Shown: positions 43,714 to 60,822 of the stretch, one piece after another
How the letters are laid out: each line of letters starts with the position of its first letter
How positions within the stretch are numbered: the first letter of the stretch is position 1
Origin: an uncultured Bacteroidota bacterium
Lineage (GTDB): Bacteria; Bacteroidota; Bacteroidia; Bacteroidales; B18-G4
DNA: 64,000 bases
Assembly: GCA_963793485.1 (NCBI GenBank)
Contig: CAWCAB010000001.1
Span: 270,534-334,533 of the forward strand
Direction: 5' to 3'
The notes under the pieces: generated by a model
Told to the model about the DNA's origin: nothing
Database searches by the model: none
Seen by the model: the letters and a program-made list of their open reading frames with translations, nothing else
Position numbers and translations under genes: made by a program

Positions 43714-43769
43714 ATATGCTAAATGATAAATGTTCAATGCTAAATGCTATATGAATAATGCTTATTTTA
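43714..43769. repeat. heptanucleotide array (right arm, inverted relative to the left arm)
   Basis: atatgct aaatgat aaatgtt caatgct aaatgct atatgaa taatgct tatttta. The reverse complement (agcattt, agcattg...) is a cyclic permutation of the left-arm units (catttag, cattgag). Confidence 0.9.
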
Positions 43770-43790
43770 GCCGCATAAAACTTATTATTT

Positions 43791-45167: not shown

Positions 45168-45267
45168 ATTAGTGAATAGTGACTAGTACCTAGTTCCTAG
45201 TACCTAGTTCCTAGTACCTAGTTCCTAATTACTAATTACTAATTACTAATGACTAATGACTAATGCC
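45163..45267. repeat. heptanucleotide tandem array, 15 in-phase units
   Basis: attagat tagtgaa tagtgac tagtacc tagttcc tagtacc tagttcc tagtacc tagttcc taattac x3 taatgac x2 taatgcc. Contains the + stop (45165-45167) and the hydF stop plus its last codons (45253-45267). Confidence 0.95.
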
Positions 45268-46464
45268 TAAAAACGGCTCCATCGCTCTTTCATAAATACC
45301 ATTTGTATAAGCAATGGTCATACCATAATTGCTAACAGGCACACCGGCATTGATAACATCTGCCAGACGGTTGCTCAGTTGCTTTCGGGTGATCATGCAG
45401 CCTCCGCATTGTATCGCTAATGAATAGTCTTTGACAGGCCTGGGAAATTCGTCCAGTCCGGCAACAATGTCAAAATGTATGTCCTTCCCGCTAAATTCTT
45501 TCAGCCATGCCGGGATCTTATGCCTTCCGATATCATCACAGTTTACCTGGTGCGTGCATGATTCCAATATGAGTACCCTGTCACCATCGTTGAGTTTTCC
45601 CAGGGCAGGAGTACCTTCCATATAAGCATTGAAATCACCTTTTCTGCTCGCCAGAAGGATGCTGAATCCCGTCAGGGGAATATCCCTGGGAACGATCTTA
45701 TCCATCTTATGGAACATCTGGCTGTCGGTGATAGCCAGACGTGGTTTGATTCCTGTATTTTTAAGGAATTCTTCCACCTCTGTTTCCTTCAAAACAATAT
45801 TTATACAATCATTGTCGAGTACATCTCTGATGGCCTGAACCTGAGGCAGGATCATCCTTCCTTCAGGAGCTTCAAGGTCAATAGGGGTGATCAGCATAAC
45901 TATGTCGCCGGGATTAAGGATATTACCAAGCAGGGAAGTGCTGGTATATGCTGATTTGGGCATCAAGCCGGTAATTGTTTCAATCAACTTCTCATAACCC
46001 ATTTCATTAAAACAACTGAATTCAATAATTTCAGTGCTATATTCTCCTTTGATATAGTTTTTAAGAGTATAGTTCAGCGGATTTTTATCCGACTTGTTGT
46101 GTACAAATAGGAAAGGGATGTTGTAATGATTGAACTGATTTGCCAGTTCTTTCTCATATTTCCCGGTCTTATTATCCGTGATCACAATAATGGCCATGTC
46201 GATGGCTTTGATCACCTGCAAACTCTTCTTAACCCTGAGTTTGCCCAGGTCACCATGATCATCTATCCCAGCAGTGTCGATGAGGATGGCAGGCCCTATG
46301 CCGAAGATCTCCACCGATTTCTTAACAGGATCAGTTGTGGTCCCCGCCTGTTCTGAGACGATGGCAGTATCCTGTCCTGCAATAGCATTGATCAAAGAGC
46401 TTTTTCCATTGTTCCTTCTCCCAAAGATCCCAATGTGCGGCTTATTTTCCCTTCCTTTTTTCAT
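45253..46464 (-). CDS. hydF: [FeFe]-hydrogenase H-cluster maturation GTPase HydF
   Basis: 403 aa. G1 GRRNNGKSS, G3 DTAG, NKSD. C-terminal Cys cluster (CTHQVNCDDIGR...QCGGC). Confidence 0.9.
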   Translation of the reverse strand: MKKGRENKPHIGIFGRRNNGKSSLINAIAGQDTAIVSEQAGTTTDPVKKSVEIFGIGPAILIDTAGIDDHGDLGKLRVKKSLQVIKAIDMAIIVITDNKTGKYEKELANQFNHYNIPFLFVHNKSDKNPLNYTLKNYIKGEYSTEIIEFSCFNEMGYEKLIETITGLMPKSAYTSTSLLGNILNPGDIVMLITPIDLEAPEGRMILPQVQAIRDVLDNDCINIVLKETEVEEFLKNTGIKPRLAITDSQMFHKMDKIVPRDIPLTGFSILLASRKGDFNAYMEGTPALGKLNDGDRVLILESCTHQVNCDDIGRHKIPAWLKEFSGKDIHFDIVAGLDEFPRPVKDYSLAIQCGGCMITRKQLSNRLADVINAGVPVSNYGMTIAYTNGIYERAMEPFLGISH

Positions 46465-46475
46465 GGATAGTTGTT

Positions 46476-47567
46476 TTAGTTGTTGGCAATGCGTTTTTTA
46501 AAGTGCTTAGAGTCACCCCACTCATTATAGTTGATGGTAAAGCCGAACTCATCAATATTTTCTTCAAAATCTATCAGGGCATTCTCGGCCATATCTGAAT
46601 AAACAGGTTTACCTGAATATATCCTGTAATTGCAGGCTTGTTTTGCCGGTGTAAGGTTTGGCATGAACACGTTTGCACCGGAGGCGATGGCTTTTAGTCT
46701 GCCTTGCTTGTCGAGCGTTTGCAAGGCCGTAGATGCAGCTATGTTGATATCTCCCATCATGAGGCGCAAGAGCGCGATCATCTTCAGGCTGAGGTCCAGG
46801 CGCGTGGCTTCATCCTGGATCTCATCTCTATAGCGGTACATGGGTGTGTCGGGGTGAGGGATATAGGGCCCCATGCCCACCATGTCAATCCCAAATTCCT
46901 TCATAAATAACAGGTCATCAGCCAGGTGCTCGATTGTTTGATGAGGCAAGCCGATCATCACCCCGGTGCCTGTCTGATATCCTAGGCTTTGCAGGGTCTG
47001 AAGTGCTTTCATCCGTCGACCAAAGTCGTGGTCACGGTCTTTTGGATGTATTTTATAATACAGCTTTTCAGAACTGCTCTCTATGCGCAGCAGATAGCGG
47101 TGTGCACCGGCATCCTGCCATTTCCTGTAGGTATCTTCAGTCTGTTCTCCACAGCTAAGGGTAATGCCTAGTTCATTCTTGCTCAATTTCTTGATCTGCC
47201 TGACAATGTCGCTAATATGATTGGTAAAAGCCTTATCCTGACGCTCACCACTCTGGATCACAATGGATCCAAAACCTTTTCTCCAGGCGTATTCAGCTGC
47301 TTCGAGGACTGGAGTGCCGCCCAGAAAATATCTTTCCACATGCTGATTCTCTGCCCGGATTCCACAATAGAGGCAGTTTTTCTTGCACTGATTGCTGATT
47401 TCGATGATCCCCCTCAGGCTGACCTTATTTCCACAATGAATGATGGTAGCCATCCTGGCCTGGGAAAACAATCTTTGTCTCTCGGTTTCATCCCTGCTCA
47501 AAAGCAGATAGATGAGATCTTCCCTGCTGAGTTCCTGCTTCATCAATATGTTTTCTGCAATAGTCAT
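46476..47567 (-). CDS. hydE: [FeFe]-hydrogenase maturase HydE (radical SAM)
   Basis: The start is taken at MTIAENILMK (ATG at 47565-47567), because the ORF-track extension overlaps hydG. Radical-SAM motif CKKNCLYCGIR. Confidence 0.9.
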   Translation of the reverse strand: MTIAENILMKQELSREDLIYLLLSRDETERQRLFSQARMATIIHCGNKVSLRGIIEISNQCKKNCLYCGIRAENQHVERYFLGGTPVLEAAEYAWRKGFGSIVIQSGERQDKAFTNHISDIVRQIKKLSKNELGITLSCGEQTEDTYRKWQDAGAHRYLLRIESSSEKLYYKIHPKDRDHDFGRRMKALQTLQSLGYQTGTGVMIGLPHQTIEHLADDLLFMKEFGIDMVGMGPYIPHPDTPMYRYRDEIQDEATRLDLSLKMIALLRLMMGDINIAASTALQTLDKQGRLKAIASGANVFMPNLTPAKQACNYRIYSGKPVYSDMAENALIDFEENIDEFGFTINYNEWGDSKHFKKRIANN

Positions 47568-47577
47568 ATCTGCTTCT

Positions 47578-49005
47578 TTAAAAGTACAGGTCTCTTTCTC
47601 CTTGTTTAACTCTGTCCAGACGCTTGACCAATTCAGCTTTGATGCGCTCATCAATGCCATTATTTAGGTTCTTTTGTATCAGTTTCCAGCCTTTCTCTGA
47701 GCGATCATCATTTCCATAGTCTTCCAGGTATTCTGCCAGAGTGAGCATAGCATTCGGGGTGCAGAATTTTTTAATGAATCCGGGAACCGAGAATTCCATA
47801 AAGTGTTGCCCGGTTCTGCCTTTGCGGTAGCAGGCTGTACAGAAGGAGGGGAGATATTCATTCTCAAGTAGTTCGTCGATCACCTGTCCGAGGCTGCGTG
47901 TGTCATGAATCAGAAACTGTTCTTTGTCAAGGTTCTGAACCTCTTTGCTATCTTCTGCATATGCACCGATTTCCAGTTTAGTACCTGCATCAACCTGTGA
48001 GCAACCAAATTGCAGTACCTCTTTCCTGATATATTCGGGTTCCCTGGCAGTAAGTATCATTCCTGTATAAGGTACGGCCAGCCTGAGGATGGCTACCAGC
48101 TTGACAAAATCATCATCGCTCACCCCGTATTTTGTGTCAATGTCATATTCCGATGCATCCTGCAGCCTTGGAAAAGATATGGTGTGCGGCCCGACATTGT
48201 AGCAAGCCTCCATGTGGTTGGTATGGCGTACCAATCCCATAACCTCAAATTTCCAGTCGTACAATCCGAAAAGCGCGCCTATCCCAACATCATCCAGGCC
48301 TGCTTCCTGAGCCCTGTCGAGTGAAGTGAGACGAAAATTATAATTCTTTTTCATGCCGCCCTTGTGATACCAGCTATAAGCTTCGGGATGATAGGTTTCC
48401 TGGAACACCTGATATGTGCCTATGCCTGCCTCTTTTACAGTTTTGAACCCATCAATGTCAAGGGGTGCCGCATTGATGTTCACCCGGCGGATCTCTCCAT
48501 TGTCCTTTTTAACACCATATACCGTTTTCACTGAATCAGCAATGAATTCAGGTGAGTATTTAGGATGTTCACCGTAAACCAGTATCAACCTCTTCTGGCC
48601 TTCCATCTCCAGGGCTTCCACATTCCTGATCAGTTCTGCCCTGCCAAGTGTTCTTCGCTCTGCCTTCTTGTTCGATGCCTTGAAACCGCAATATTTACAG
48701 TTGTTTATGCAGTAATTACCCACATACAGAGGAGCAAAAAGTACGATCCGCTCTCCATAAACATTCTTTTTCAGCTGACGTGCACCATCTTTGATCTCTT
48801 GCAGAAGCTCAGGGTCTTCAGTGTTCAGCAGCACCGCTACCTCCTGCATGCTGAGCCTTTGCTTGGAAAGAGACCTGGCAATGATCTTTCTTACCTCAGT
48901 TGCTTCTGGAACAGCATTACTGAGCATATTATCGATCTCGGCAGGGTCGATGAAAGGCTTCATCGGCTCGTCTTTGATTGCGTATGTTTCCGGAGTGAAT
49001 TTCAT
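47578..49005 (-). CDS. hydG: [FeFe]-hydrogenase maturase HydG (radical SAM tyrosine lyase)
   Basis: 475 aa. CINNCKYCGF radical-SAM motif. C-terminal auxiliary-cluster cysteines PSFCTACYRKGRTGQHFME...KFCTPNA. Confidence 0.9.
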   Translation of the reverse strand: MKFTPETYAIKDEPMKPFIDPAEIDNMLSNAVPEATEVRKIIARSLSKQRLSMQEVAVLLNTEDPELLQEIKDGARQLKKNVYGERIVLFAPLYVGNYCINNCKYCGFKASNKKAERRTLGRAELIRNVEALEMEGQKRLILVYGEHPKYSPEFIADSVKTVYGVKKDNGEIRRVNINAAPLDIDGFKTVKEAGIGTYQVFQETYHPEAYSWYHKGGMKKNYNFRLTSLDRAQEAGLDDVGIGALFGLYDWKFEVMGLVRHTNHMEACYNVGPHTISFPRLQDASEYDIDTKYGVSDDDFVKLVAILRLAVPYTGMILTAREPEYIRKEVLQFGCSQVDAGTKLEIGAYAEDSKEVQNLDKEQFLIHDTRSLGQVIDELLENEYLPSFCTACYRKGRTGQHFMEFSVPGFIKKFCTPNAMLTLAEYLEDYGNDDRSEKGWKLIQKNLNNGIDERIKAELVKRLDRVKQGERDLYF

Positions 49006-49019
49006 CTTTTTAGTTTTTA

Positions 49020-50159
49020 TCAGTTCATCTTCTGGCTTGTTGATTGAAGTTTTACCGTGAATGTGCTGCCCTTGTCAGCTTCACTGCTTGCGGTGATCTG
49101 CCCATTGTAGGTGTTCTCAACGAGTTTCTTTACGATGGATAAACCCAGCCCGCTGCCGGTAATGTTCCTGGTCTTGTCATTTTTGATCCTGACAAATTCC
49201 TGGAACAGCCTGGAAAGCTCTTCTGTGCTCATCCCAATACCGCTATCTTCCACCCTGATCTCAATCCCTTCTTTGTCCTTGCTTATCTTTATACTTACTT
49301 CACCACCTTCTCTGTTGTATTTTACTGCATTGGATATCAGGTTATTGAATATTATTTCAAGTTCATCTGCATCAGCTTTGAACAATAGGCTTTCCGGGGC
49401 ATCCAGATAAACTTTTACATTGCGCTGAATGGCCATGGGCTCAATGGTATCCATAGCCAGGCGCGCTACATCTATTAAATCAATATCTTTCACTTCCCTG
49501 TTCTTCTTCCCCGATTCAAGCTTTGTCAGGTCGAGCAGGTCCATGATCAGGTTTCGCATCCCCTTGATCCTCTCAATTGATCTGTCTATCATGATGCTAT
49601 AATCAGCAATGTCATCTCCAACCTGTTTGTCTTTCATGATGTTGAGGTAACCTTCAACTGCATTGATCGGCGATTTAAGCTCATGGGATAGTACCGAAAG
49701 GAATTGGAACCTGACCTGCTTTCCGGCCTGGTCCATTTGCCTGGTCATCCTTTTCAGGAAAAGATGCTTGGTAATGCTTTCCATGGCTGTTCTCAGCTCA
49801 TCAGGCGTAAATGGCTTGGGAACGAAGTTGTAAGCACCGTTATTCGTGGCTTTCACAGCAAGGTCGAGCGATGCATAGGATGTGATCATCATGACTGTAA
49901 CATCGATCTGGTTTTTGTTGATGTACTCAAGAACTTCGATGCCATCCATCCCGGGCAGTTTGTTGTCGAGCAGAATGATATCTACCTTCTTTTCCTTGAG
50001 AATATCCAGGGCTTTCTCACCTGTGTCAGCCTCACTGAGCTCGAAGCTGAAATCTTCATCCATAAAGGGGTAACCAAAGGTGTAGTTCCGCAATATGCGG
50101 TTTATGCCCGATCTGATCCCGGGCTCATCATCAACAACCAGTACTTTCAAACTTACCAT
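49020..50159 (-). CDS. hybrid receiver-histidine kinase (REC-HisKA-HATPase), no sensor or output domain
   Basis: 379 aa. REC: VLVVDDEPG...DIILLDNKLPGMDG...PKPF. H-box SHELKSPINAV. HATPase: GSGLGLSIVKKLV. Confidence 0.85.
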   Translation of the reverse strand: MVSLKVLVVDDEPGIRSGINRILRNYTFGYPFMDEDFSFELSEADTGEKALDILKEKKVDIILLDNKLPGMDGIEVLEYINKNQIDVTVMMITSYASLDLAVKATNNGAYNFVPKPFTPDELRTAMESITKHLFLKRMTRQMDQAGKQVRFQFLSVLSHELKSPINAVEGYLNIMKDKQVGDDIADYSIMIDRSIERIKGMRNLIMDLLDLTKLESGKKNREVKDIDLIDVARLAMDTIEPMAIQRNVKVYLDAPESLLFKADADELEIIFNNLISNAVKYNREGGEVSIKISKDKEGIEIRVEDSGIGMSTEELSRLFQEFVRIKNDKTRNITGSGLGLSIVKKLVENTYNGQITASSEADKGSTFTVKLQSTSQKMN

Positions 50160-50170
50160 GACTAAGAGTT

Positions 50171-50566
50171 TTAGATCTTTAATAACTTATTGATCTCACG
50201 CTCGAGCTGATCCTTTCGGATTCCTTTTTCGATGAACTTATCGGCGTGAATCCATTTTTTGTCCTCTTCTGTATCCAGGCTGAAATTCAAGCCTGTTTCC
50301 GAGGTCACTGCCGAAGCAATGATGATGGGTAAAACAGGGTACTTTTTCTTCATCTTGTAACTGAGAATAAATCCACTGTCTTTGTTTTCCATCATCAGGT
50401 CGATGATCGCCAGATCGGGTTCCCCTTCTTCCAGCATGCTTTCAGCTTCTTTTTCGCTGTTGGCCATCTGGACTTCATAGCCTAAACTGTTGAGCTGTAT
50501 TTCAAGTTGGTTCAGATAATCAATGTCGTCGTCAACAATGAGGATGTTTTTCTTCTCGGTATTCAT
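50171..50566 (-). CDS. stand-alone receiver-domain response regulator
   Basis: 131 aa. ILIVDDDID...DLAIIDLMMENKDSG...; atypical tail SAVTSETGLNFSLDTEEDKKWIHADKFIEKG. Confidence 0.8.
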   Translation of the reverse strand: MNTEKKNILIVDDDIDYLNQLEIQLNSLGYEVQMANSEKEAESMLEEGEPDLAIIDLMMENKDSGFILSYKMKKKYPVLPIIIASAVTSETGLNFSLDTEEDKKWIHADKFIEKGIRKDQLEREINKLLKI

Positions 50567-50584
50567 TGCTTATTCTCCTATCTT

Positions 50585-52576
50585 TTAATTGCCTCGTGGC
50601 AAAGTGATTTTAAATGTGGTTCCTAGTGGGCCGCTGGTCGGATCGGCATTCGACTCTACTTTGATCTGGCCTTTGTGCATCTTCACAATGCCATATACCA
50701 GTGGAAGACCAAGGCCTGTGCCTTTCCCTACCTCCTTGGTGGTAAAGAAAGGGGTGAAGAGCTTGTCCATATTTTCTGTTGGGATCCCGACCCCGTTATC
50801 GCTGATTCGGACTTCGATCCCTGAATCTGTATTATTTAATTCAATTTTAAGCACACCGCCCTCAGGCATAGATTCTACTGCATTTTTTTCAAGGTTGGTG
50901 ATCACCTGCATCATCTGGTCCCTGTCAATGCTGGCCATTACATGCTCAGTATTGCATTCAAACTTAATGTCGATATTTCCATTGTGAAGGATACTGCCAA
51001 TACTTTCTTCGAGGAATTTTTTCATATCGGTTTCTTCCAGCTTCACCTGGTTCTTTCTTGCAAAATTGAGCAGTCCACCAACGATCTTCTTGCAACGTTC
51101 AGTTTGCTCTACTATAAGTTCAAGGTCTTGATAAACAGGGTTTTCTTTGCTGGTTTCATCCTTCAAAATATTACTGTACATTGTGATTACTCCGAGGGGG
51201 TTGTTCAGTTCGTGAGCAATCCCGGCTGACAGTTGCCCCATATGGGCCAGCTTTTCTGAATGCCTCAGTGCCTGCTGTGTGTTGGCCAGTTCCTCGTTGC
51301 TGGAGTTGAGTTCTTTCACTGAATTATGCAACTTCTCGATAGTATATGGCAGGCACATCTCGTCCTCTGCCAGGCCTTCTACGATGGCCCATGCATGTTC
51401 CCGGCAGGTTTCATATCCGCAAGCACCGCAGTTCAGGTGGTCTTTTTCAGATCGCTTGCCCATGGAAAGGAGGATCTCATTGATCTTTTCTTCAGATGGT
51501 TTTGAAACCCTTCTGTCAGAAGCTTCAAACTCCCTGGAAAGATCCAGATCTGAAAACCTTTCGATATCTTTTTCCCATTGACCTACATCCAGTTTTTGAA
51601 GCTTTTCACTGGCATAATTGCTGACTCTCAGCGTACGTTCAAATTTCTTTCCTTCACAGCTGATCCCTGGTCCCATAATACAGCCATCGCAGCATAGGAG
51701 CTCCAGGTGTTGGTTCTTGATCAATCCATTTTCAAATTCCTTGATCGCATCCTTGAAGTTTTCTTTCCCTTCTGCAACAAGCACATTCCCATCACAAATA
51801 TCATCATTGTGGTTTGTAGTTTGAAGAAGTCCGCGGCTGATGGGAAAAATGGCCCCTTTTCCTGAAGCCGGCTTATCGAAACCTGACTTATCTGCATTGA
51901 TTTCTGATATGTTTGCTTCTTCAAACATGCTCCTCAACTCTTTGAAGGTGAGAGCTTCATCGATCTCATTACTTTCAGCCTTCTTTGCTATGCATGGGCC
52001 AATGAATACAACTTTTACTTCATCGCCATGCATTTCACGGATCATCCGTGCCGTAGCCACCATGGGTGATACAATCGGTGCTAAAGATTCAACGAGTTCA
52101 GGGTGATAGAACTCAATGTACCGCACGATGGCCGGGCAATCGGATGATATGTAGTTTTTAATATTCTGACCATTCAGTAACTGACTGTATTCTTTTGCCA
52201 CCAGGTCGGCACCGAAGGATACTTCTATAACCTGCTCAAAGCCAAGGGCCCTGATCATACCGGCGATATCCTGGGGTTCAGTCAGTTCTTTAAATTCGGC
52301 AGGGAAACTGGGAGCCAGGATGGCAAGCACCCTTTTACTGTTATTCAACAATTCATTAACCACATTACTTGTTTCCATAAACATTTTGGCTCCCTGCTTG
52401 CATACCTTTACGCAATTCCCACAACCGATACAACGATCGCCAACTACCTCGGCCTGACCGTTGATGATCTTAATAGCTTTTGCAGGGCATTCACGAACAC
52501 ATGTAAAGCACATCCTGCACCTGTCCTTAACGGTGTAAACCAACTGCCGATGTCTGATGTCTTCTTTCATGTTCAT
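50585..52576 (-). CDS. [FeFe]-hydrogenase-like sensor fused to a histidine kinase (2x[4Fe-4S] ferredoxin - HydA-like domain - putative Fe-S (PF04060-like) motif - HisKA - HATPase)
   Basis: Ferredoxin CRMCFTCVRECP / CIGCGNCVKVC. H-domain-like motifs SSDCPAIV, IGPCIAKKAE and LELLCCDGCIMGPG. LNCGACGYETCREHAWAI. H-box AHELNNPLG. GTGLGLPLVYGIV. The start is ambiguous (52597, 52576 or 52570) because the 5' end runs into a heptamer array. Confidence 0.8.
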   Translation of the reverse strand: MNMKEDIRHRQLVYTVKDRCRMCFTCVRECPAKAIKIINGQAEVVGDRCIGCGNCVKVCKQGAKMFMETSNVVNELLNNSKRVLAILAPSFPAEFKELTEPQDIAGMIRALGFEQVIEVSFGADLVAKEYSQLLNGQNIKNYISSDCPAIVRYIEFYHPELVESLAPIVSPMVATARMIREMHGDEVKVVFIGPCIAKKAESNEIDEALTFKELRSMFEEANISEINADKSGFDKPASGKGAIFPISRGLLQTTNHNDDICDGNVLVAEGKENFKDAIKEFENGLIKNQHLELLCCDGCIMGPGISCEGKKFERTLRVSNYASEKLQKLDVGQWEKDIERFSDLDLSREFEASDRRVSKPSEEKINEILLSMGKRSEKDHLNCGACGYETCREHAWAIVEGLAEDEMCLPYTIEKLHNSVKELNSSNEELANTQQALRHSEKLAHMGQLSAGIAHELNNPLGVITMYSNILKDETSKENPVYQDLELIVEQTERCKKIVGGLLNFARKNQVKLEETDMKKFLEESIGSILHNGNIDIKFECNTEHVMASIDRDQMMQVITNLEKNAVESMPEGGVLKIELNNTDSGIEVRISDNGVGIPTENMDKLFTPFFTTKEVGKGTGLGLPLVYGIVKMHKGQIKVESNADPTSGPLGTTFKITLPRGN

Positions 52577-52628
52577 TATTCCCTGTTCGTTATTCATATT
52601 CTTGTTCCTTGTTCCTTGTTCTTGATTC
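52573..52628. repeat. heptanucleotide array inside the hydrogenase operon (between the hydA stop and the sensor-kinase start)
   Basis: tcattat tccctgt tcgttat tcatatt cttgttc cttgttc cttgttc ttgattc. Confidence 0.9.
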
Positions 52629-54352
52629 TATTTAAGCACTTCTCTCTCTTCATAAGACGTATGCAACAACTCATGGCTCTTATGCCCACAAGGGGAGCCC
52701 AGGTATCTGTCATAGATCTCAATGACATCCGGGTTCTTATGCGATACTTTGATGCTTTCATTTTCATCGATGGTGTAGAGGCTTTTCATCCTGGCGATGA
52801 TGGCTTCCTTTTCAGCACCTATCCTCTGTCCGCCTCCTGCGATACATCCGCCCGGACAAGCCATCACTTCGATAAAGTGGATGTCGTTCCTGCCATTCCT
52901 GATCTCATCAAGGAGGATCCTGGCATTTTCCAATCCACTGACTACAGCTACACCAATGTCAAGGTCGCCGATCTGCAATCTGGCTTCTTTTCTTCCCTTC
53001 AGTCCCCTGATCTCAGGTACCTGGAAGTTCACCAGCTCTTTGCCTGTGATCTTGTAGTATGCGGTACGAATAGCAGCTTCCATAACACCTCCGGATGCTC
53101 CAAACAGCTTTCCTGCTGTACTCCTGAAGCCCATTGGAGAATCAGCCATCTCCGGCTCAAGCTTATGAATATCCACCCCATGCATTTTAATGAAGTCGGC
53201 TAGCTCACGGGTGGTGAGGACAGCATCCACATCTGTGATGCCGTGCCTGGTCATCTCATTGCGCTGTGCCTCAAATTTCTTTGCGGTACAGGGCATGATG
53301 GAAACAGAATATATATCTTCAGGCTTGATTCCTTCGCTCTCTGCCCAGTAGCTTTTGATTACTGCACCCATCATTTGCTGAGGTGATTTACAGCTAGAGA
53401 GATTAGGAATAAAATCAGGAGCAAACTCTTCCGCATATTTGATCCACGCAGGGCAGCAGCTTGTGATCATCGGCATGGTGCCACCATCCTGTATTCTCTG
53501 TATAAGTTCCGCTGACTCTTCCATGATAGTGAGGTCGGCAGAGAAAGTAGTGTCGAAGACGGTCTTGAAACCGATCTTCCTCAGTGCTGCATTCAGAATC
53601 CCGTTGATATCTTTTCCCGGCTCCATACCAAAGGCTTCGGCCAGCGAGACAGAGATAGCAGGAGCATACTGTACGACCAGTGTTTTAGATGTATCGCTCA
53701 GGGCTTCGGTGATCTCTGCAAAGTGATTCTTCTCCGTCAGGGCACCGGTAGGGCACACCATGATGCACTGTCCGCAATTTACACAGCTTGAGGTATTCAG
53801 TCCCCCATTGAAGGCCGTACCGATCACGGTTTTGCTCCCACGGTTGATAAAATCAATGGCTGAAACGCCCATCACTTCTTCACATACCCTGATGCACCTT
53901 CCACAGAGGATGCATTTGTCAGGATCGCGAACGATGCTCGGACTCGACTGGTCGAGGCTGAAGTTGTTCTTTATACCATGAATCCTGCGTTCAGTCACAT
54001 TCAATTGTTTAGACAGGCCCTGGAGTTCACAATTCCCATTGCGCACGCAATAGAGGCAGTCATCGGGATGATTCGAAAGCAGTAACTCTACGATGGTCTT
54101 CCTCGATTCGATTACCTTATTGGAGTGTGTTTGCACTTTCATACCTTCTGAAACAGGGAAAGAGCAGGAAGATACCAGCTTCCCACTATCTTCCATTTCT
54201 ACAACACACATACGGCATGATCCGCTCGGGAACATGTCCTTCATATGGCAGAGCGTAGGAACATGGATGCCATTCCTGCTCAGGACATCAAGGATGGTCT
54301 CACCATTTTCAGCACTTACTTTCTTATTATTTATTTCGATGTCAAAACTCAT
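52628..54352 (-). CDS. hydA: [FeFe]-hydrogenase catalytic subunit (M3-type, HndD/HydA-like)
   Basis: The start is taken at MSFDIEINNKKV (ATG at 54350-54352). N-terminal 2Fe-2S and 4Fe-4S domains. H-cluster motifs TSCCPAW, MPCTAKKFE and EVMACPGGCIAGGGQ. Confidence 0.95.
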   Translation of the reverse strand: MSFDIEINNKKVSAENGETILDVLSRNGIHVPTLCHMKDMFPSGSCRMCVVEMEDSGKLVSSCSFPVSEGMKVQTHSNKVIESRKTIVELLLSNHPDDCLYCVRNGNCELQGLSKQLNVTERRIHGIKNNFSLDQSSPSIVRDPDKCILCGRCIRVCEEVMGVSAIDFINRGSKTVIGTAFNGGLNTSSCVNCGQCIMVCPTGALTEKNHFAEITEALSDTSKTLVVQYAPAISVSLAEAFGMEPGKDINGILNAALRKIGFKTVFDTTFSADLTIMEESAELIQRIQDGGTMPMITSCCPAWIKYAEEFAPDFIPNLSSCKSPQQMMGAVIKSYWAESEGIKPEDIYSVSIMPCTAKKFEAQRNEMTRHGITDVDAVLTTRELADFIKMHGVDIHKLEPEMADSPMGFRSTAGKLFGASGGVMEAAIRTAYYKITGKELVNFQVPEIRGLKGRKEARLQIGDLDIGVAVVSGLENARILLDEIRNGRNDIHFIEVMACPGGCIAGGGQRIGAEKEAIIARMKSLYTIDENESIKVSHKNPDVIEIYDRYLGSPCGHKSHELLHTSYEEREVLK

Positions 54353-54374
54353 TTCTCTATTCTTTAAGCGGTTC

Positions 54375-56324
54375 TTAATTGATCGACACTGCATTAAATT
54401 TGCATACTTCATCACATGTGCCGCAACCAATACATTTGCTATCGACGATGAAGTGAGGGGCTTTCTTTGATCCAATGATAGCCCCGGTAGGGCATTTTCT
54501 TGCACAAAGGGTGCAGCCGGTGCATTTATCAACATCAATGGAGAAGGTCCTCAACTCGGTGCAGACCCCGGCAGGGCATTTTCTTTCGAAAATATGTTCT
54601 TCATATTCATTTCTGAACCAGCGTAGGGTGCTGAGTACAGGGTTGGGAGCAGTCTGGCCCAGGCCACACAAAGAGGTCTCTTTGATCACTTTACCCAGCT
54701 TTTCCAGTTGCATGACCCCTTTGAAGCGCTCTAATGCATCTGTGTTTCCACCATTGGGCTTGTGGGTGATGTTTTCGAGTATTTCCAGCATGCGTTTGGT
54801 ACCTTCCCGGCAGGGGATACATTTACCACAGCTCTCACGCTGGATAAAATCCATAAAAAACTTGGCTACATCTACCATGCAGGTGTCTTCATCCATAACA
54901 ACCAGTCCGCCGCTGCCCATCATGGCTCCGGCACTGAGCAGGGATTCATAGTCGATCTGTATGTCGAGGTTCTCTTCGGTGATACATCCACCAGATGGGC
55001 CTCCGATCTGCACAGATTTGAATTTTTTCTCGTTGAGGATGCCGCCGGCAATATCGAAAATGATCTCACGTACCGTCGTACCCATGGGGATCTCGATAAG
55101 ACCTGTTAGGGCTACCTTGCCGGATAGAGCAAATACTTTAGTTCCTTTACTGGTTTCGGTTCCAATGGAAGCGAAGTGCTCAGCACCCATTTCTATGATC
55201 GATGGTATATTCGACAGTGTTTCTACATTATTAATGATCGTAGGTTTCCCGAAGAGACCTTTTACGGCAGGGAAGGGTGGACGGGGGCGTGGCATACCAC
55301 GTTTTCCTTCAATGCTATGGATGAGGGCTGTTTCTTCACCACAAACAAAGGCTCCGGCGCCCATCTTGATCACAAATTCCAGATCAAAACCACTTTCATT
55401 AATGTTTTTGCCCAGCAATCCCAGTTCATTAGCTTGCTTAAGGGCTTCCTTCAGCCTGGCAATGGCCAGTGGGTATTCAGCTCTGATATAAACATATGCT
55501 TTTGAAGCTCCGATAGCATAAGCTGCTGTGGCCATACCTTCGATCAGCCTGTGTGGGTCGCCTTCAATCACAGCACGGTCCATAAAAGCACCTGGGTCAC
55601 CCTCATCGGCATTGCAGATCAGGTATTTTTGGTCGGCTTCCTGACGGAAAGCGAAGCCCCATTTAGTACCCGTTGGGAATCCCCCGCCACCTCGGCCGCG
55701 TAATCCACTTTTCGCAATCATTTCGCATACTTCCAGGGGGCTCTTCTCTGTAATGAGTTTCAGAAAGTTTCTGTAACCATCATGGGCAATGTATTCTTCA
55801 ATTGAAGCGGGGTTGATGATTCCGCAGCTCTTCAGCACCATCCTGGTTTGAGGGGCAAAGAATGGGTGTTCATCCATAAATGGAATGCCGGAATAGCTTT
55901 CCAGACTTTCCTGCCTGAACTGCCCTATGGCCAGGTCTGTATCAGGTGTACCTTTAAAAACCTGCTCAAGCAGATCTTCAGCCTTGTCCCCGGTAATATT
56001 CTGAAAGGATATCCTCGTTTTTCCTGGCAATTGGATGTCAACGATGGGTTCAGCTGCGCAAAGTCCGATACAACCAACCTGGATAACAGAGGCTTCAATA
56101 TTTTCTTTCGCTATCCAATTGTTAATGGCTGTCATGGTCTTGTCTGCACCGGCTCCCAACCCACAGGTACCTGCACCAATATAAATGATGGGGTGCCTGG
56201 TGTCCTCATGCCTCAGCATTTTAAGTTGTTGAACTTCGGTTTCTGAGAAGCTTTCCAGTGCCCTCGGGTGCTTAAGATATTGTCTGAGTACTTCCATGTG
56301 TTGATATTTGTGCGTGTTTATCAT
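54375..56324 (-). CDS. hydB: NuoF-like flavoprotein subunit of trimeric [FeFe]-hydrogenase (HydB/HndC)
   Basis: 649 aa. N-terminal thioredoxin-like 2Fe-2S region. FMN/NADH site GRGGGGFPTGTKW, CGKCIPCREG. C-terminal 2x[4Fe-4S] CTGCTLCARKCP / CIGCGTCDEVC. ATGA overlap with hydC. Confidence 0.9.
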   Translation of the reverse strand: MINTHKYQHMEVLRQYLKHPRALESFSETEVQQLKMLRHEDTRHPIIYIGAGTCGLGAGADKTMTAINNWIAKENIEASVIQVGCIGLCAAEPIVDIQLPGKTRISFQNITGDKAEDLLEQVFKGTPDTDLAIGQFRQESLESYSGIPFMDEHPFFAPQTRMVLKSCGIINPASIEEYIAHDGYRNFLKLITEKSPLEVCEMIAKSGLRGRGGGGFPTGTKWGFAFRQEADQKYLICNADEGDPGAFMDRAVIEGDPHRLIEGMATAAYAIGASKAYVYIRAEYPLAIARLKEALKQANELGLLGKNINESGFDLEFVIKMGAGAFVCGEETALIHSIEGKRGMPRPRPPFPAVKGLFGKPTIINNVETLSNIPSIIEMGAEHFASIGTETSKGTKVFALSGKVALTGLIEIPMGTTVREIIFDIAGGILNEKKFKSVQIGGPSGGCITEENLDIQIDYESLLSAGAMMGSGGLVVMDEDTCMVDVAKFFMDFIQRESCGKCIPCREGTKRMLEILENITHKPNGGNTDALERFKGVMQLEKLGKVIKETSLCGLGQTAPNPVLSTLRWFRNEYEEHIFERKCPAGVCTELRTFSIDVDKCTGCTLCARKCPTGAIIGSKKAPHFIVDSKCIGCGTCDEVCKFNAVSIN

Positions 56325-56791
56325 GATTGGGCTTCCGATTTTCTGCAGTTTGCTATGATCTCTTCAATGCTGTTTTCATTCACTTTGGCGTGAAATTCGC
56401 CATTGATGCAAATAACGGGTGCCAGGCCACATGCACCAATACAGGCGACAACCTCGAGGCTGAACAAACCATCACGGGAAGTTTGTCCGGGTTTTATCTT
56501 CAGCAAATCCTGCATCTTTTCCAGTACTGTGGCTGATCCCAGCACGTGGCATGCCGTTCCGCGGCATACCTGGATATGATATTCTCCCTGGGGTTCGAAG
56601 CGGAATTGGTTATAGAATGTAGCTACTCCAAAAATTTTGCTGGCAGGCATATGGAGATGCCTGCCAACTTTCACCACAGAATCTTCTGACAGGTAGCCCG
56701 CCTTTTCCTGTATCGCCTGCAGGATGGGGATCAGCTGATCCTGGCCTGCTCCGGCTTTTGCTTCTAAGATGTTATCTACTACGTCATTCAT
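56321..56791 (-). CDS. hydC: NuoE-like [2Fe-2S] subunit of trimeric [FeFe]-hydrogenase (HydC/HndA)
   Basis: 156 aa. CRGTACHV...CIGACGLAP cysteine pattern of the NuoE/HndA family. Confidence 0.9.
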   Translation of the reverse strand: MNDVVDNILEAKAGAGQDQLIPILQAIQEKAGYLSEDSVVKVGRHLHMPASKIFGVATFYNQFRFEPQGEYHIQVCRGTACHVLGSATVLEKMQDLLKIKPGQTSRDGLFSLEVVACIGACGLAPVICINGEFHAKVNENSIEEIIANCRKSEAQS

Positions 56792-56827
56792 TGTTGTAGG
56801 AATTAGGGGGTTACTTGTGCGTGTTTA

Positions 56828-57346
56828 TTATGCTGATACCTTCTCTGCTTTCTTTTCGAAAAGGCCTTTTACCTCTGCTATCAGTTTGTCAGCTTCGATA
56901 GGTTTTCTGAGGAAACCGTCAACATTGAGCCAGATCGACGGGCCTTCTTCACTCCTGTAATCGATACCGGCATTGCCTGTGATCACATCTTTAATAAGCA
57001 GTACATCCAGTTCGCGGTAGCTCGGGTCATTCCTGAATTCCCTGGCCATTTCCTGCACACTGGCCTTGGTGGTGGTCAGGATGTCAATAGAAGATTGCAT
57101 CAAAACAGGCATGTTTTTGAATTCCGGATTTTCACTCAATTCCTTGGCCATCTCAAAGCCTTCAAAATGTGTGGTCATCATCACATCGAGGATAGCCAGA
57201 TCGGGTTGTTCAGCCCAGGCTTTCTTAATGCCTTCGATCTTATCGTTGGCAGAAATTACTTCATACCCTTCTTTGCTAAGGATAGCAGCAACTACGGTGA
57301 TCACATCGATGTCGTCATCTACGATCAAAATCTTTTTTGTTTCCAT
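56828..57346 (-). CDS. receiver-domain protein with a ~50-aa insertion (first gene of the hydrogenase block)
   Basis: 172 aa. ILIVDDDID...DLAILDVMM...PVLMQSS, then the insert DILTTTKASVQEMAREFRNDPSYRELDVLLIKDVITGNAGIDYRSEEGPSIWLNV before DGFLRKP. Confidence 0.75.
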   Translation of the reverse strand: METKKILIVDDDIDVITVVAAILSKEGYEVISANDKIEGIKKAWAEQPDLAILDVMMTTHFEGFEMAKELSENPEFKNMPVLMQSSIDILTTTKASVQEMAREFRNDPSYRELDVLLIKDVITGNAGIDYRSEEGPSIWLNVDGFLRKPIEADKLIAEVKGLFEKKAEKVSA

Positions 57347-57516
57347 GGTGATTTGTTTTAATAGTTTATGAAAAATTTATGATGCTAAATTAGTCCGGGA
57401 TAGGGGTATGGCACAAGGTGGGAAAGTACCGTTTTTGGGGTGTAAAGAAGTATGACAATAAACGGTAAAAACAGGAAGGGATGAAAGTGAAAACCAGTAA
57501 AAAACTGCAAATTTAA

Positions 57517-57544
57517 GGTGTTGGGTGTTGGGTGTTGGGTGCTA
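57517..57544. repeat. heptanucleotide array, 4 units
   Basis: ggtgttg ggtgttg ggtgttg ggtgcta. Confidence 0.85.
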
Positions 57545-57597
57545 GATTGGCATGTAAGGTGTAGATTTACAGTCTTATGCGTTAATACGCGCACGTA

Positions 57598-57665
57598 CTT
57601 TACCCCCTGGTCCCTTCTCCTTGAGGAGAGGGGGCAAAGGGGGACAGGGGGTTAAGGGGGTGAGG
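57598..57665 (+). other. C-rich/G-rich palindromic element with a four-run G5 tract (G-quadruplex motif at 57630-57660)
   Basis: tttaccccctggtcccttctccttgaggagaGGGGGcaaaGGGGGacaGGGGGttaaGGGGGtgaggtg. cccttctcc and ggagaggg can pair. Confidence 0.6.
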
Positions 57666-57667
57666 TG

Positions 57668-58324
57668 CTAAATTGTCACCAATTTGTTCTTTATCGCAAA
57701 AGAAAGCAGGCTAATTGTGCTTTTGCAATTAGTCTTTGAAAGAAGGTTGGATTTGTGACCTATTACAGTTCGCTCACTGATAAATAATTCTTCTGAAATC
57801 TCACGATTGCTGAGCCCGTCGCAGATCAGCTGGAGGATCTCTTTTTCTCTCCTGGTGAAATGAAGTTCTGTTTTATCATCCTTTTTCTGCTCAGCGAATT
57901 TCTTTCCGAAATATGACCATAATTCAGGTGAATAATAGGTGTTGCCGGAGGCGATGGATTGTAATGCCTGGTCGAGGAGCTCCTTGGTAATGTTCTTGAG
58001 TAGAAAGCCATGCACCCCAATATCCATCATCTTGTCGATGTATTCCTCATCATCAAACATGGTGAGGATCACGATTTTCAGATTTGGAAATTTCTTGATC
58101 GCGATCTCGCTGGCCTCTATTCCGTCCATAATTGGCATCTGAAGATCCAGCAGAACCAGGTCAGCTTGCTTTTCGTCTTGCAACTCGAGAAATTCCTTCC
58201 CGTTGGAAGCTTCCCCAAGCACACTTGCATATTTCAACCTGTTAACCACCATTTTCAACCCATTCCTGAAGAACTCGTGGTCGTCAACAATTAGGATCTT
58301 AAGATTCTTGTCTGATTGCTCCAT
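57668..58324 (-). CDS. LuxR/NarL-family DNA-binding response regulator
   Basis: 218 aa. REC: ILIVDDHEF...DLVLLDLQMPIMDG. C-terminal LuxR HTH: TRREKEILQLICDGLSNREISEELFISERTVIGHKSNLLSK. Confidence 0.9.
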   Translation of the reverse strand: MEQSDKNLKILIVDDHEFFRNGLKMVVNRLKYASVLGEASNGKEFLELQDEKQADLVLLDLQMPIMDGIEASEIAIKKFPNLKIVILTMFDDEEYIDKMMDIGVHGFLLKNITKELLDQALQSIASGNTYYSPELWSYFGKKFAEQKKDDKTELHFTRREKEILQLICDGLSNREISEELFISERTVIGHKSNLLSKTNCKSTISLLSFAIKNKLVTI

Positions 58325-58342
58325 TGTCTTGCAAATGTAATA

Positions 58343-59680
58343 CTATTTAAACGAATCGGAAGGAAGCTTTACCTCTACAATTACCAGTGTTCCGGCTTCT
58401 TTTTTAGAGTGTATCCTGTAGGTTCCATTGATGGAACGCAATCGGCTGATAATGTTCTTCAGTCCCATGCCACTCCCTTCCTGCTTAAGCACTTTGTCGA
58501 GATCAAATCCGATGCCGTCATCCATATAAGTGAGCTGCAAAATATTATCGAATTTCTCCAGATGTACTTCTATTTTAGATGCGGATGCATGTTTGATGCT
58601 GTTGTTAAGAAGTTCAGTAATCACCCTGTAGAGGACCAGCTCAATGGTTTGATCAAAACGGTCCGTGATGGAGGCTTCATAAACAATGTTGACTTTCTGA
58701 CTGAGATTTAATTTTTTGCAAAACGATTCTACCGCCTTGATCAGGCCAAAATTGATGATTACCCTGGGGGTCAGGTTGTTGGCGATTGTCCTTGTGGAAG
58801 AAATGGCTTCGTCGAGAATTTCCGTGGCTTTTAGCAGGAATTCGCTTCGCTCAGCTTTATCAAGATCTTCTGATTCCAGTTCATTTACATAAAGCTTAAT
58901 GGCCGACATCAAAGGCCCAAGATCATCGTGGATCTCGCTTGCTATTCTCTCACGCTCGCGCTCTTCTGCATCAATGACAGCCCTCAGAATTTTCCTTTCA
59001 AGGTGCTTACGCTCTGTAATATCCCTGGCAATAGAAAGGATGGCTTTGCTGCCCTGGTAATTGATTAGACGGCTCTTCATCTCCAGCGATAATATCTGGC
59101 CCTGCTTGCTCAGGTGCTCCGATTCATATGTATGTTTTCCCCTCGCCAGGATCAATTGTATGTTTTCTTTAACCTTGTCAACGTACTTTGGCGTTTTAAT
59201 ATCTGCAAAATTCATTTGTTTGATTTCTGCCTGATTGTATCCAAGGGAATCGCAGGCCACCTGGTTCACCTCCAGGAAATTTCCATTTATGTCGGCAAGG
59301 AAAATTTCATCACTGCTATTATGAAAAAGGGTGCTAAAACGTTTTTCTGATTCTTCCCTGGACTCTTCAGCCTTATTGGCTGAATATAGTATCCTGGCAA
59401 TACCTATCACTGAAAATGCCAGGATCACAGATACAAGGATACCAAGCCATTGATCTACCAGGGTATAGTCATGTACCTCCTTGATTCCCTGCAATGTAAG
59501 CAGGTCAAAGATTCTTCTTATAGCCATGAATATCAGCGCGATAGCAATGAGTATCCAGGCTATTCTGTTCTTTGCATATTTGATCAGCCAGATGGCGCTG
59601 ATAAATGCTACAAACTGCAATACAACAGATAATATTAACGCAATAAAAGTGAACATACTCTTAAGCTCTTGATCCTGCAA
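58343..59680 (-). CDS. membrane sensor histidine kinase (TM-PAS-HisKA_3-HATPase), partner of the LuxR regulator
   Basis: 445 aa. Three N-terminal TM helices, a PAS region, H-box EIHDDLGPLMSAIK, HATPase GSGMGLKNIISR. Confidence 0.85.
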   Translation of the reverse strand: MQDQELKSMFTFIALILSVVLQFVAFISAIWLIKYAKNRIAWILIAIALIFMAIRRIFDLLTLQGIKEVHDYTLVDQWLGILVSVILAFSVIGIARILYSANKAEESREESEKRFSTLFHNSSDEIFLADINGNFLEVNQVACDSLGYNQAEIKQMNFADIKTPKYVDKVKENIQLILARGKHTYESEHLSKQGQILSLEMKSRLINYQGSKAILSIARDITERKHLERKILRAVIDAEERERERIASEIHDDLGPLMSAIKLYVNELESEDLDKAERSEFLLKATEILDEAISSTRTIANNLTPRVIINFGLIKAVESFCKKLNLSQKVNIVYEASITDRFDQTIELVLYRVITELLNNSIKHASASKIEVHLEKFDNILQLTYMDDGIGFDLDKVLKQEGSGMGLKNIISRLRSINGTYRIHSKKEAGTLVIVEVKLPSDSFK

Positions 59681-60033
59681 AGGTATTGTATTGCAGGAAA
59701 ATACTTACATGTTGAATGTCATTTATAGGTATTTAATAGGAAACTATACCTGAAAATCCTTGTTTTTCAAAACATGATGTTATATATTTGCACACAGTTG
59801 GCAAAATACCACCTAGGCAAATAAACAACCAGAGCATCTTTCTAAGGTCTTTTATACCTCAAAATTAATTATTTATGAGGTCAGGAAATTGTGTTTTTTA
59901 TCTAGAGTTTTTAATTGAAAAGCCTGGAGAACAAATACACAGCTAATTTGTTAAAGAGTTTGAAAAAAATAAGCTGCCGACCATGCAGCTAGAAACCCAA
60001 TAACCCAAAAGACAAAATTTAATACAGTAAATT

Positions 60034-60822
60034 ATGAAACGTACAGTACTTCTGGTAGTACCTCTATTCCTTTTTCTGGGAATGGGGATGCAAGCCCAGG
60101 TAGCCATTAATACCGATGGCTCAGCTCCCAACGATGCGGCAATTCTGGATATTAATGCTGCTGACAAAGGCTTACTCATTCCCAGGATGGTGATCACCGA
60201 CCTTGACTCTGATCAAACTCCGGTGGAAAATCCGGTTGAAGGTTTGCTGATATTTAATACAGGAGATACCGATCTGATCCCCACGGGATTTTATTACTGG
60301 GCAGGAGGTAAGTGGCAGATGGTTCAATCCGGAAATTCTTCCTTTACCATTAACCAGCAGATGCAGATGTACGAGGCTGCAGAACTATTTGAGGATAATT
60401 CCTCTCCATACAACAATTTCTTACCTACTAGTTCAGATTATTATGGATGGAAAAGTGCAACTGAAGGCGAAACATTTGGTAATACCAGTACTGATACTGA
60501 GGACCTGACTGCTGATAAAATTATTATCGGCGAAGATGGCCTTTATAAAGTGGAAGTATGTCTCTCATTTTCAGGATCTAATAATTTCCAGGTAGAGGGT
60601 GTGATATTTCATTATTCAGTCGAGACTTTCACTTCAAGCAAAACAAAGATTCGGTTCCTCAGAAAACTTGCTGCACTTGATATTGGCTCAGCTTCTACGC
60701 ACGGTTTGTTACGTCTGCAGGAAGGGGATAAGATCGACTTAAGGTTTAAGTCCAACTCCTGGGGTGAGACTCTGTTTATTCACAATATTAACCTGATTGT
60801 GAATAAAGTAGGGGAACTCTAG
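60034..60822 (+). CDS. secreted protein with C-terminal C1q/TNF-like jelly-roll-like domain (tentative)
   Basis: 262 aa with a signal peptide. N-terminal QVAINTDGSAPNDAAILDI...KGLLIPRM...GLLIFNT...GFYYWAGGKWQ module. C-terminal GEDGLYKVEVCLSF...SASTHGLLRLQEGDKIDLRF resembles C1q-domain hallmarks. Confidence 0.5.
   Translation: MKRTVLLVVPLFLFLGMGMQAQVAINTDGSAPNDAAILDINAADKGLLIPRMVITDLDSDQTPVENPVEGLLIFNTGDTDLIPTGFYYWAGGKWQMVQSGNSSFTINQQMQMYEAAELFEDNSSPYNNFLPTSSDYYGWKSATEGETFGNTSTDTEDLTADKIIIGEDGLYKVEVCLSFSGSNNFQVEGVIFHYSVETFTSSKTKIRFLRKLAALDIGSASTHGLLRLQEGDKIDLRFKSNSWGETLFIHNINLIVNKVGEL

Follow-up and report, generated by a model that had tools for sequence, protein, structure and literature searches.

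The question raised by the 64,000-nucleotide stretch of DNA considered here (contig CAWCAB010000001.1 of an uncultured Bacteroidota bacterium, positions 270,534 to 334,533; the whole of this stretch is referred to below as the window) is why an operon for an [FeFe]-hydrogenase and its maturation should also contain four genes for proteins with histidine kinase or receiver (REC) domains, one of these proteins carrying a hydrogenase-like domain of its own. The answer proposed is that the locus encodes a cytoplasmic H2-responsive His-Asp relay that is co-transcribed with HydABC, the enzyme on which it would report, and on balance we regard this as just about probable. The H2-to-phosphorelay function, the route taken by the phosphoryl group and the eventual output are all things that we infer from sequence.

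The genes concerned form a single block on the minus strand (45253-57346), which in order of transcription encodes REC172, HydC, HydB, HydA, a HydS-like sensor continuing into HisKA and HATPase domains (HydS-HK), the lone receiver REC131, a receiver-kinase (REC-HK), and finally HydG, HydE and HydF. According to the listing of open reading frames (ORFs), successive genes are separated by 11-62 nt or else overlap, as happens for two pairs (hydC with hydB, and hydG with the longest hydE ORF). A preliminary description, made from the letters and ORFs of the window, had reported just such a co-directional block with short gaps, and had placed in it four signalling ORFs whose positions, strand and domains are all reproduced by the ORF listing and Pfam. 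The translation of HydA has the canonical motifs TSCCP, MPCTAKKFE and EVMACPGGC, and the protein scores 819 bits, against a cut-off of 765, with the NCBIfam model NF040763 ('NADH-dependent [FeFe] hydrogenase, group A6'). The block also supplies the maturases HydG, HydE and HydF, so that an H-cluster can be made. A scan for intrinsic terminators and sigma-70-type promoters, which is of limited value for Bacteroidota promoters, gave nothing above shuffled controls.

The protein on which the argument turns is HydS-HK, which is predicted to be a soluble sensor of the group C HydS type. Its Pfam match to Fe_hyd_lg_C (E 5e-47) reaches 161 bits where the cut-off is 22, and alignment with the window's HydA sets the signatures SSDCP (L1), GPCIAKKAE (L2) and ELLCCDGC (L3) opposite the three HydA motifs. 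In 67-69 HydS-HK orthologues taken from genome loci the H-cluster ligands C147, C195, C296 and C299 are invariant together with Lys198 and Glu201 of L2; so too, in the complete ORFs among 69 orthologues, are the eight Cys of the N-terminal ferredoxin domains, and so are the Cys of a C-terminal cluster of the form C383-x2-C386-x4-C391-x16-C408 (Cx2Cx4Cx16C), which corresponds to PF04060 FeS at E 1.7e-9. Relative to HydA the second sphere is altered, TSCCP becoming SSDCP, MPC becoming GPC and MAC becoming LCC, and the positions of C299, M353 and M497 in CpI are taken by Asp, Gly and Leu respectively; at the proton-relay position the 67 orthologues have Asp (52), Ser (8), Thr (6) or Ala (1). The earlier assignment of this domain to the [FeFe]-hydrogenase families is thus upheld by the Pfam score, by the presence of every H-cluster Cys and by the group-C substitutions. 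As the NCBIfam models for group A and group B1 score far under their cut-offs with HydS-HK (95 against 406 and 186 against 450 respectively), the sensor belongs to neither group A nor group B, while a search of the PDB with its sequence found no solved structure of HydS type.

The kinase is part of the same polypeptide, with HisKA at residues 453-516 and HATPase_c at 558-668 (Pfam), and its boxes (H455, N561, N565, D593, G595, G597, G619, G621 and G623) are invariant across the 69 orthologues. Its core has the H-E-x-x-N sequence of the bifunctional type, and the closest matches to it are ZraS among PDB entries (E 1.7e-33) and AtoS/ZraS among the NCBIfam models. Only 46 residues, helical in character, link C408 to His455, no PAS family is found in HydS-HK by Pfam at E<=0.01, and in a low-confidence AlphaFold2 (AF2) model, which was built from a 14-sequence alignment and used only to look for a PAS-like sheet, residues 310-450 are all helical and no such sheet is present. 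The direct fusion of sensor to kinase with no intervening PAS domain, as originally reported, is therefore retained.

Because the claim concerns gene content, conservation, rather than chance, is the relevant test of it. The sample used for this comprised one genome per species, giving 80 loci with 10-kb flanks whose ORFs were assigned to the window's proteins by BLASTP; the seven phylum-level labels borne by these loci, which are those of the metagenome-assembled genome (MAG) records, are Bacteroidota, Planctomycetota, Myxococcota, Hydrogenedentota, Calditrichota, Neomarinimicrobiota and Eisenbacteria. In 73 of the 80 hydA directly adjoins the sensor gene, and in 72 the order is sensor, REC131, REC-kinase; two others have REC131, sensor, REC-kinase, and in at least five the sensor is followed directly by the REC-kinase. 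All six genes of the series hydC-hydB-hydA-sensor-REC-REC-kinase are colinear in 58 loci, most of the remainder stopping at contig edges. Median gaps are 18, 32 and 3 nt, the last two being those for sensor-REC and REC-REC-kinase, and REC-HK occurs together with the sensor in every locus where the contig reaches past the latter. More widely, a large protein collection holds at least 7,903 homologues of the sensor at E<=1e-10, a figure that includes domain-level kinase relatives, and the full sensor architecture is seen in the 120 best matches listed. The synteny of signalling genes with hydABC that had been anticipated is accordingly found in 72-73 of 80 loci and extends far beyond Bacteroidota; what has to be revised is the membership of the four-gene signalling set, of which the sensor, REC131 and REC-HK recur while REC172 is specific to one clade and no part of the universal module.

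Each of the three receivers has a complete set of the residues needed for phosphorylation, namely D12/D13, D56, S85 and K114 in REC131, D10/D11, D65, T93 and K115 in the receiver of REC-HK, and D10, D11, D54, S86 and K148 in REC172. REC131 has in addition a conserved motif, W105-x-x-A108-D109, just before β5. In REC-HK the phospho-acceptor H159 has zero column entropy and all of the ATP-binding boxes are intact; NCBIfam finds its kinase core to be a PhoR/PnpS-like HisKA, and its receiver scores best with those of NosR, LuxO, AtoC, NtrX and NtrC, which is not the case for REC131 or REC172.

REC172 had been called atypical, and justifiably so: its Pfam match ends at position 93 of a 111-position profile because of an insertion of some 45 residues between β4 and β5, modelled by AF2 (pLDDT 87) as two helices and three strands and containing about 25 residues that are invariant in the family alignment. 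The pocket residues listed above are also invariant in that alignment, K148 being followed by Pro149, and on that ground the idea that REC172 might be a degenerate pseudo-receiver can be ruled out; the AF2 model folds as a receiver, and when Foldseek was used to compare it with the PDB only ordinary receivers of 115-130 residues were returned, which covered the core and left the insertion unmatched. The family numbers 930 proteins at E<=1e-8, all of 164-185 aa and all with the receiver as their only Pfam domain, and in every context examined (12 genome loci and four metagenome contigs, the latter at 64-65% identity) REC172 stands at the head of hydCBA. With REC131 it has 29% identity (BLASTP, E 6e-15) and a common tail, W-x-x-x-D-x-F-x-x-K, and it is best regarded as a clade-specific paralogue of REC131 that lies outside the universal module. 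At the five positions of α1 chosen, by the Spo0F convention, to represent kinase specificity, REC131 has D/Y/Q/I/Q and REC172 has D/V/V/A/I, and since four of the five differ it may be suggested that the two have different phosphodonors. Further small lone receivers (119-129 aa) are encoded upstream of REC172 in loci L082/L083 (9605-9985), L084/L085 (9587-9973), L001 (4842-5201) and L045 and after hydF in L056 and L063, bringing the number of receivers in some lineages to four or five per locus.

In the relay that we propose, binding or oxidation of H2 at the H-cluster would alter the conformation of the sensor and so shift its balance between autokinase and phosphatase activity. The phosphoryl group would then pass mainly to the NtrC/AtoC-like receiver of REC-HK, gating this second kinase, and possibly also to REC131, and the second kinase would in turn charge a lone receiver, which would be REC131 everywhere, with REC172 forming a further branch, insulated from the first, in the clade of the window. 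The lone receivers would act by protein contacts made through the conserved α4-β5 face, and the result would be feedback on expression of the hyd operon or on activity of the enzyme. Candidate targets for them would be Rex, HydABC, the promoter complex of the LuxR-type regulator encoded nearby, or some unlinked regulator. The core step, transfer from HydS-HK to the receiver of REC-HK, is one to which three lines of evidence point, if weakly: REC-HK is never found apart from the sensor, REC131 being absent or moved in a few lineages; the sensor has a kinase core like that of AtoS/ZraS, and REC-HK a receiver like those of AtoC/NtrC/LuxO; and the helix of the dimerisation and histidine phosphotransfer (DHp) domain of the sensor and α1 of the REC-HK receiver are both near-invariant, the DHp of REC-HK and α1 of REC131 both being variable.

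Several points weigh against this scheme and should be borne in mind. When mutual information with average product correction was calculated for DHp against α1 over 69 triples, the top-10 sums fell within 1.9-2.6 in all four pairings and so favoured none of them, and the suggested order of phosphotransfer would follow only from family-level resemblance and the matching of rates. HydDB lists the role of group C1, the histidine kinase-linked class of [FeFe]-hydrogenase, as undetermined (PMC5037454), and no experiment is known to tie C1 to H2 sensing. H2 does not reduce the C-terminal cluster of TamHydS, a group D protein (PMC13104023), and for that reason a model in which reduction of this cluster switches the kinase may be wrong. 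The AF2 model of the sensor is one of low confidence (pLDDT 63), and the window has neither a rex gene nor a Rex box.

This last point leads on to the matter of output. The preliminary description had stressed that the signalling proteins carry no output domain, and this is true of the four relay proteins in the window and of the relay proteins in all 80 loci; where it falls short is that the operons of 51 of the 80 loci also encode Rex, recognised by its Put_DNA-bind_N and CoA_binding domains in a protein of 200 aa. The rex gene comes directly after the REC-kinase in 40 loci, mostly of Bacteroidota (median gap 8.5 nt), and directly before hydC in nine loci from other phyla (median gap -1), and in many of the rex loci the operon's leading gene, be it hydC or rex, is preceded by Rex-like boxes (TTGTTAAnnnnnTAACAA or TGTGAAnnnnTTCACA). 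In most lineages, then, the H2 signal might be combined with the sensing of NADH/NAD+ by an in-operon Rex repressor. In the window, tblastn found no match to rex anywhere in the 64 kb and no Rex-like box occurs at <=3 mismatches in 56792-57667, so that integration by Rex cannot apply here as such. The same is true of rex throughout the window's clade (12 loci), which also has no C3-type pair (see below) and has REC172 before hydC instead; rex is missing exactly where REC172 and the LuxR-type regulator occur, and a Rex-box-like TTGTGAAAnCAGTAACAA is seen upstream of REC172 in some clade members. For this clade DNA binding would be supplied by the LuxR-type regulator or by an unlinked one. It could also be that no transcription factor stands at the end of the relay, and that the phosphorylated lone receivers (REC131, and REC172 in the clade) dock on HydABC or on Rex, in which case H2 would feed back directly at the post-translational level or the H2 and NADH/NAD+ signals would be physically merged; we think this distinctly unlikely, though if true it would be the first signalling route to be defined for any sensory [FeFe]-hydrogenase.

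The C3-type pair just mentioned consists of a second, kinase-less HydS-like protein of about 625 aa and a SpoIIE/PP2C phosphatase, which are encoded in 30 Bacteroidales loci on the opposite strand to hydC and divergently from it (e.g. L007, L010-L013, L019, L023-L041). Many Bacteroidales thus have two types of HydS around a single hydCBA, a C3-like one upstream and the fused HydS-kinase downstream of hydA. As a separate observation, 30 loci have a gene for FAD synthetase (RibF) after rex.

If the relay does end in DNA binding within the window's clade, one candidate is the LuxR/NarL-type regulator, which might be phosphorylated by HydS-HK or REC-HK alongside its PAS-HisKA_3 kinase and bind the promoter of REC172-hydCBA. 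The regulator and that kinase are present in the window as first described, but they should not be set aside as an independent pair, because the regulator is a recurrent neighbour of REC172 (directly upstream in eight of the 12 clade loci, elsewhere in the locus in one more) and in three loci (L018, L021 and L050) no HisKA_3 kinase adjoins it, the genes next to it being for a glycosylase, a peptidase and a mutase. Together with the mutually exclusive occurrence of rex already noted, and with a palindrome, CAGGTA-N4-TACCTG, that at <=1 mismatch occurs in 1.56 Mb of loci only in hyd promoters, this makes the LuxR-type regulator a candidate DNA-binding output, whose membership of the system is uncertain. 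Set against it are a median gap of 279 nt between LuxR and REC172, which makes LuxR a separate transcription unit; identities of only 39-56% between the LuxR proteins of different loci, lower than for the hyd and relay proteins; the situation in L082/83, where 7.5 kb separate the pair from the locus and the genes that follow it are for secreted fn3 proteins, and in L084/85, where none is present within 10 kb; the absence of the palindrome from the window; and the fact that NarL-type regulators are usually partnered by HisKA_3 kinases. On this evidence we consider it unlikely that the LuxR-type regulator is the relay's DNA-binding end. Something we would doubt to a similar degree is that the lone receivers serve to drain or buffer phosphate and that REC-HK is a feedback element, the real output being an unlinked, conventional DNA-binding response regulator. 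This would account well for relay proteins conserved over 80 loci with no output domain, the varying number of receivers (the additional ones in L082-85, L001, L045, L056 and L063) fits modulators better than it does a fixed output, and there is a precedent in ExsG, the kinase activity of which is inhibited by phosphorylation of its receiver (PMC3899027). However, both kinds of lone receiver have strongly conserved surfaces outside the pocket (W105, A108 and D109 in REC131, and the invariant residues of the REC172 insertion), suggesting a specific partner for each, and it would be unusual for the partner regulator of so conserved an operon never to be linked to it.

Another possibility is that the HydS-like domain responds not to H2 but to redox state or electron flux (ferredoxin/NADH), by way of its Fe-S clusters or through docking to HydABC. 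The five Fe-S sites within one polypeptide, and the constancy with which the sensor adjoins HydABC and often Rex, would both be consistent with this, as would the TamHydS result given above and the report of one study that H-cluster motifs in standard form were not found, or were hardly detectable, in C1 proteins of Hydrogenedentota (PMC11406978). This last failure is, however, explained by the altered signatures SSDCP, GPC and LCCxGC, in which the ligands themselves are present, and the invariance of the four H-cluster Cys and of the L2 Lys and Glu, which holds in the other phyla as well, tells against this reading; moreover, with substitutions like these TmHydS still binds an H-cluster and has H2 turnover (PMC10055695). 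We consider it very unlikely that redox state or flux, rather than H2, is what is sensed.

Returning to the H2-responsive relay, it is useful to compare it with systems already known. The closest in its sensory part is the group C protein TmHydS of Thermotoga maritima (M2f type), which likewise has a pair of [4Fe-4S] clusters at its N-terminus, an H-domain in which every ligating Cys is kept and a C-terminal Cx2Cx4Cx16C, is encoded beside a HydABC-type hydrogenase, and differs from catalytic enzymes at the proton-relay Cys, Met353 and Met497 (A for C299, G for M353 and S for M497; PMC10055695). The differences are that the relay position is Asp in most HydS-HK proteins (52/67) and Ala in TmHydS, that in HydS-HK the histidine kinase core, comprising the DHp and catalytic and ATP-binding (CA) domains, follows directly after the C-terminal cluster, and that His-Asp transfer is predicted here, where C3-type proteins work with Ser/Thr phosphatases or kinases. 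Group C has been stated to have a PAS domain after the C-terminal cluster (PMC13104023), and this HydS-HK does not have. A nearer match by name is the HydDB group C1, 'histidine kinase-linked (putative)', made up of putative H2 sensors tied to histidine kinases, which often adjoin group A3 hydrogenases, as in Petrimonas mucosa (PMC7768429) and Hydrogenedentota (PMC11406978). That class, however, was defined by clustering of sequences, and its best reference in HydDB has no fused HATPase domain (PMC11406978), whereas the proteins considered here come with conserved REC and REC-kinase partners and with rex in the operon.

For the relay itself the best parallel is the BphP1-AgR-ExsG-ExsF cascade of Agrobacterium and Rhizobium, in which BphP1 phosphorylates both AgR and the receiver of ExsG, and ExsG phosphorylates ExsF, a branched cascade with no output domains that has been demonstrated biochemically (PMC3899027). 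The genes of the window give the same parts list (sensor kinase, lone receiver, receiver-kinase and second lone receiver); the input there is a bacteriophytochrome rather than a hydrogenase domain, the kinase core of ExsG is of the hexameric HWE type where that of REC-HK is a classical HisKA, and the cascade does not lie within a metabolic operon. The [NiFe] regulatory systems HoxBC-HoxJ-HoxA and HupUV-HupT-HupR (HydDB 2b) offer a functional analogy, in that a catalytically poor hydrogenase controls a histidine kinase which governs hydrogenase genes, but they are unrelated in metal centre and in fold, they have the sensor and the kinase on different polypeptides, and their pathways end in an NtrC-type DNA-binding regulator of a kind that the window's relay does not contain. 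The HydS-phosphatase-Rex operons of Firmicutes, and C3-type HydS with SpoIIE/PP2C, similarly group hydABC with genes for phospho-signalling and for a protein resembling an H2 sensor, and often with Rex; there the chemistry is Ser/Thr phosphorylation as opposed to His-Asp, and the window has neither a C3-type sensor nor rex. The literature searched yielded no account of the PAS-less fusion, the conserved pairing of REC with REC-kinase, the presence of rex inside the operon, or REC172. The class of sensor has already been named (HydDB C1), and is large, while the multikinase relay conserved alongside it has apparently not been described before.

The interest of this lies partly in the fact that sensory [FeFe]-hydrogenases have been the subject of years of spectroscopy with no signalling partner or output known, and a 2026 study of TamHydS described the identification of interaction partners as critical (PMC13104023). 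With the sensor fused to its transmitter, H2 sensing could be read directly as autophosphorylation, and the conserved neighbours would be the first candidates for phosphotransfer, turning an open question into one of defined assays. The module is widespread and sits within the operon of a bifurcating hydrogenase, the enzyme by which fermenters set their balance of H2 and redox. The way the relay works would matter for the transfer of H2 between species in sediments, digesters and guts; it might also furnish an all-protein, genetically encoded H2 biosensor. Table 1 collects the features of the locus.

Table 1 Genes and other features of the hydrogenase locus, with their positions in the window and the basis on which each was assigned.
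Feature	Position	Strand	Assignment and basis
REC172	56828-57346	-	REC with insertion (Pfam)
HydC	56321-56791	-	NuoE-like [2Fe-2S] subunit; Pfam 2Fe-2S_thioredx, E 2.6e-48
HydB	54375-56324	-	NuoF-like FMN/NADH subunit; Pfam Complex1_51K and NADH_4Fe-4S
HydA	52628-54352	-	Catalytic [FeFe]-hydrogenase subunit; Pfam, NCBIfam, canonical H-cluster motifs
HydS-HK	50585-52576 (alternative ATG 52597)	-	Two Fer4, Fe_hyd_lg_C, PF04060 FeS, HisKA, HATPase_c
REC131	50171-50566	-	REC only (Pfam)
REC-HK	49020-50159	-	REC, HisKA, HATPase_c (Pfam)
HydG	47578-49005	-	Radical SAM maturase; NCBIfam equivalog above cut-off (set TIGR03955/TIGR03956/TIGR03918)
HydE	46476-47567	-	Radical SAM maturase; NCBIfam equivalog above cut-off (same set)
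HydF	45253-46464	-	Maturation GTPase; NCBIfam equivalog above cut-off (same set)
Conserved promoter/leader block upstream of REC172	57415-57514	-	Candidate operator or promoter; comparison of upstream regions
LuxR/NarL-type response regulator	57668-58324	-	REC and GerE (Pfam)
Membrane PAS-HisKA_3-HATPase kinase	58343-59680	-	Presumed partner of LuxR; Pfam, tblastn

The region upstream of REC172 deserves some further comment. The leader block of Table 1 contains AATTTGCAGTTTTTTACTGGTTTTCAC ... TTCCTGTTTTTACC ... AAAAACGGTACTTTCCCACC, and the clade-wide block found in this region is TTTGCGTAAAAGTACTGGTTTT, of which AATTTGCAGTTTTTTACTGGTTTTCAC, within 57487-57514, is the window's version; relatives have the leader block at about 5040-5110 in L018 and 5010-5080 in L021, and it is found also in L016, L017 and L003. 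Since a search of 44800-60200 against Rfam at E<=1 returned nothing, the conserved leader block belongs to no known RNA family, and reading the leader by eye gave no convincing -24/-12 element for sigma-54. The palindrome discussed above is confined to the hyd promoters of L002 (5091-5106), L082/L083 (9502-9517) and L084/L085 (9495-9510), some 90-100 nt upstream of the first receiver gene, and its half-sites are ones that we take to resemble NarL heptamers. Leader block and palindrome are leads to a candidate operator, nothing more. Close by are a tandem CACCCAA-type repeat (acccaacacccaacacccaac) at 57523-57545 on the minus strand and, just past the LuxR stop codon (57600-57665, same strand), a G/C-rich inverted repeat (ccctctcctcaaggagaaggg) with C-run and G-run flanks that is possibly a terminator or an element resembling repetitive extragenic palindromes (REP-like).

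The HisKA_3 kinase of the window is a protein of 445 aa that has no Cache domain and begins with some 100 hydrophobic residues, which probably span the membrane. Homologues beside hyd in other members of the clade are of some 700 aa and have Cache_3-Cache_2 (e.g. L001, 859-2967), apart from that in L082/83, which is short (433 aa). The possibility that kinase and LuxR form a strictly orthologous pair across the clade was ruled out, as the window's kinase, having no Cache domain, matches the 700-aa homologues only from the PAS domain onwards.

Some minor features of the loci remain to be recorded. HydB is much longer in L063 (4475-7741, Planctomycetota) and L079 (4616-7768, Myxococcota), at about 1050-1090 aa as against about 650 aa elsewhere, which suggests an extra fused domain. 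A 174-aa TM1266-like protein (PF21699, 'iron-only hydrogenase system regulator, putative') is encoded after hydG in ten loci (L019, L024, L027, L029, L035, L038-L041 and L069). Within the window, a cytochrome b/b6-family protein is encoded on the plus strand (61737-63020), 2 kb upstream of the signalling genes, and a homologue of the 23S rRNA intervening-sequence protein on the minus strand (43247-43837), downstream of hydF, both having no apparent connection with the locus.

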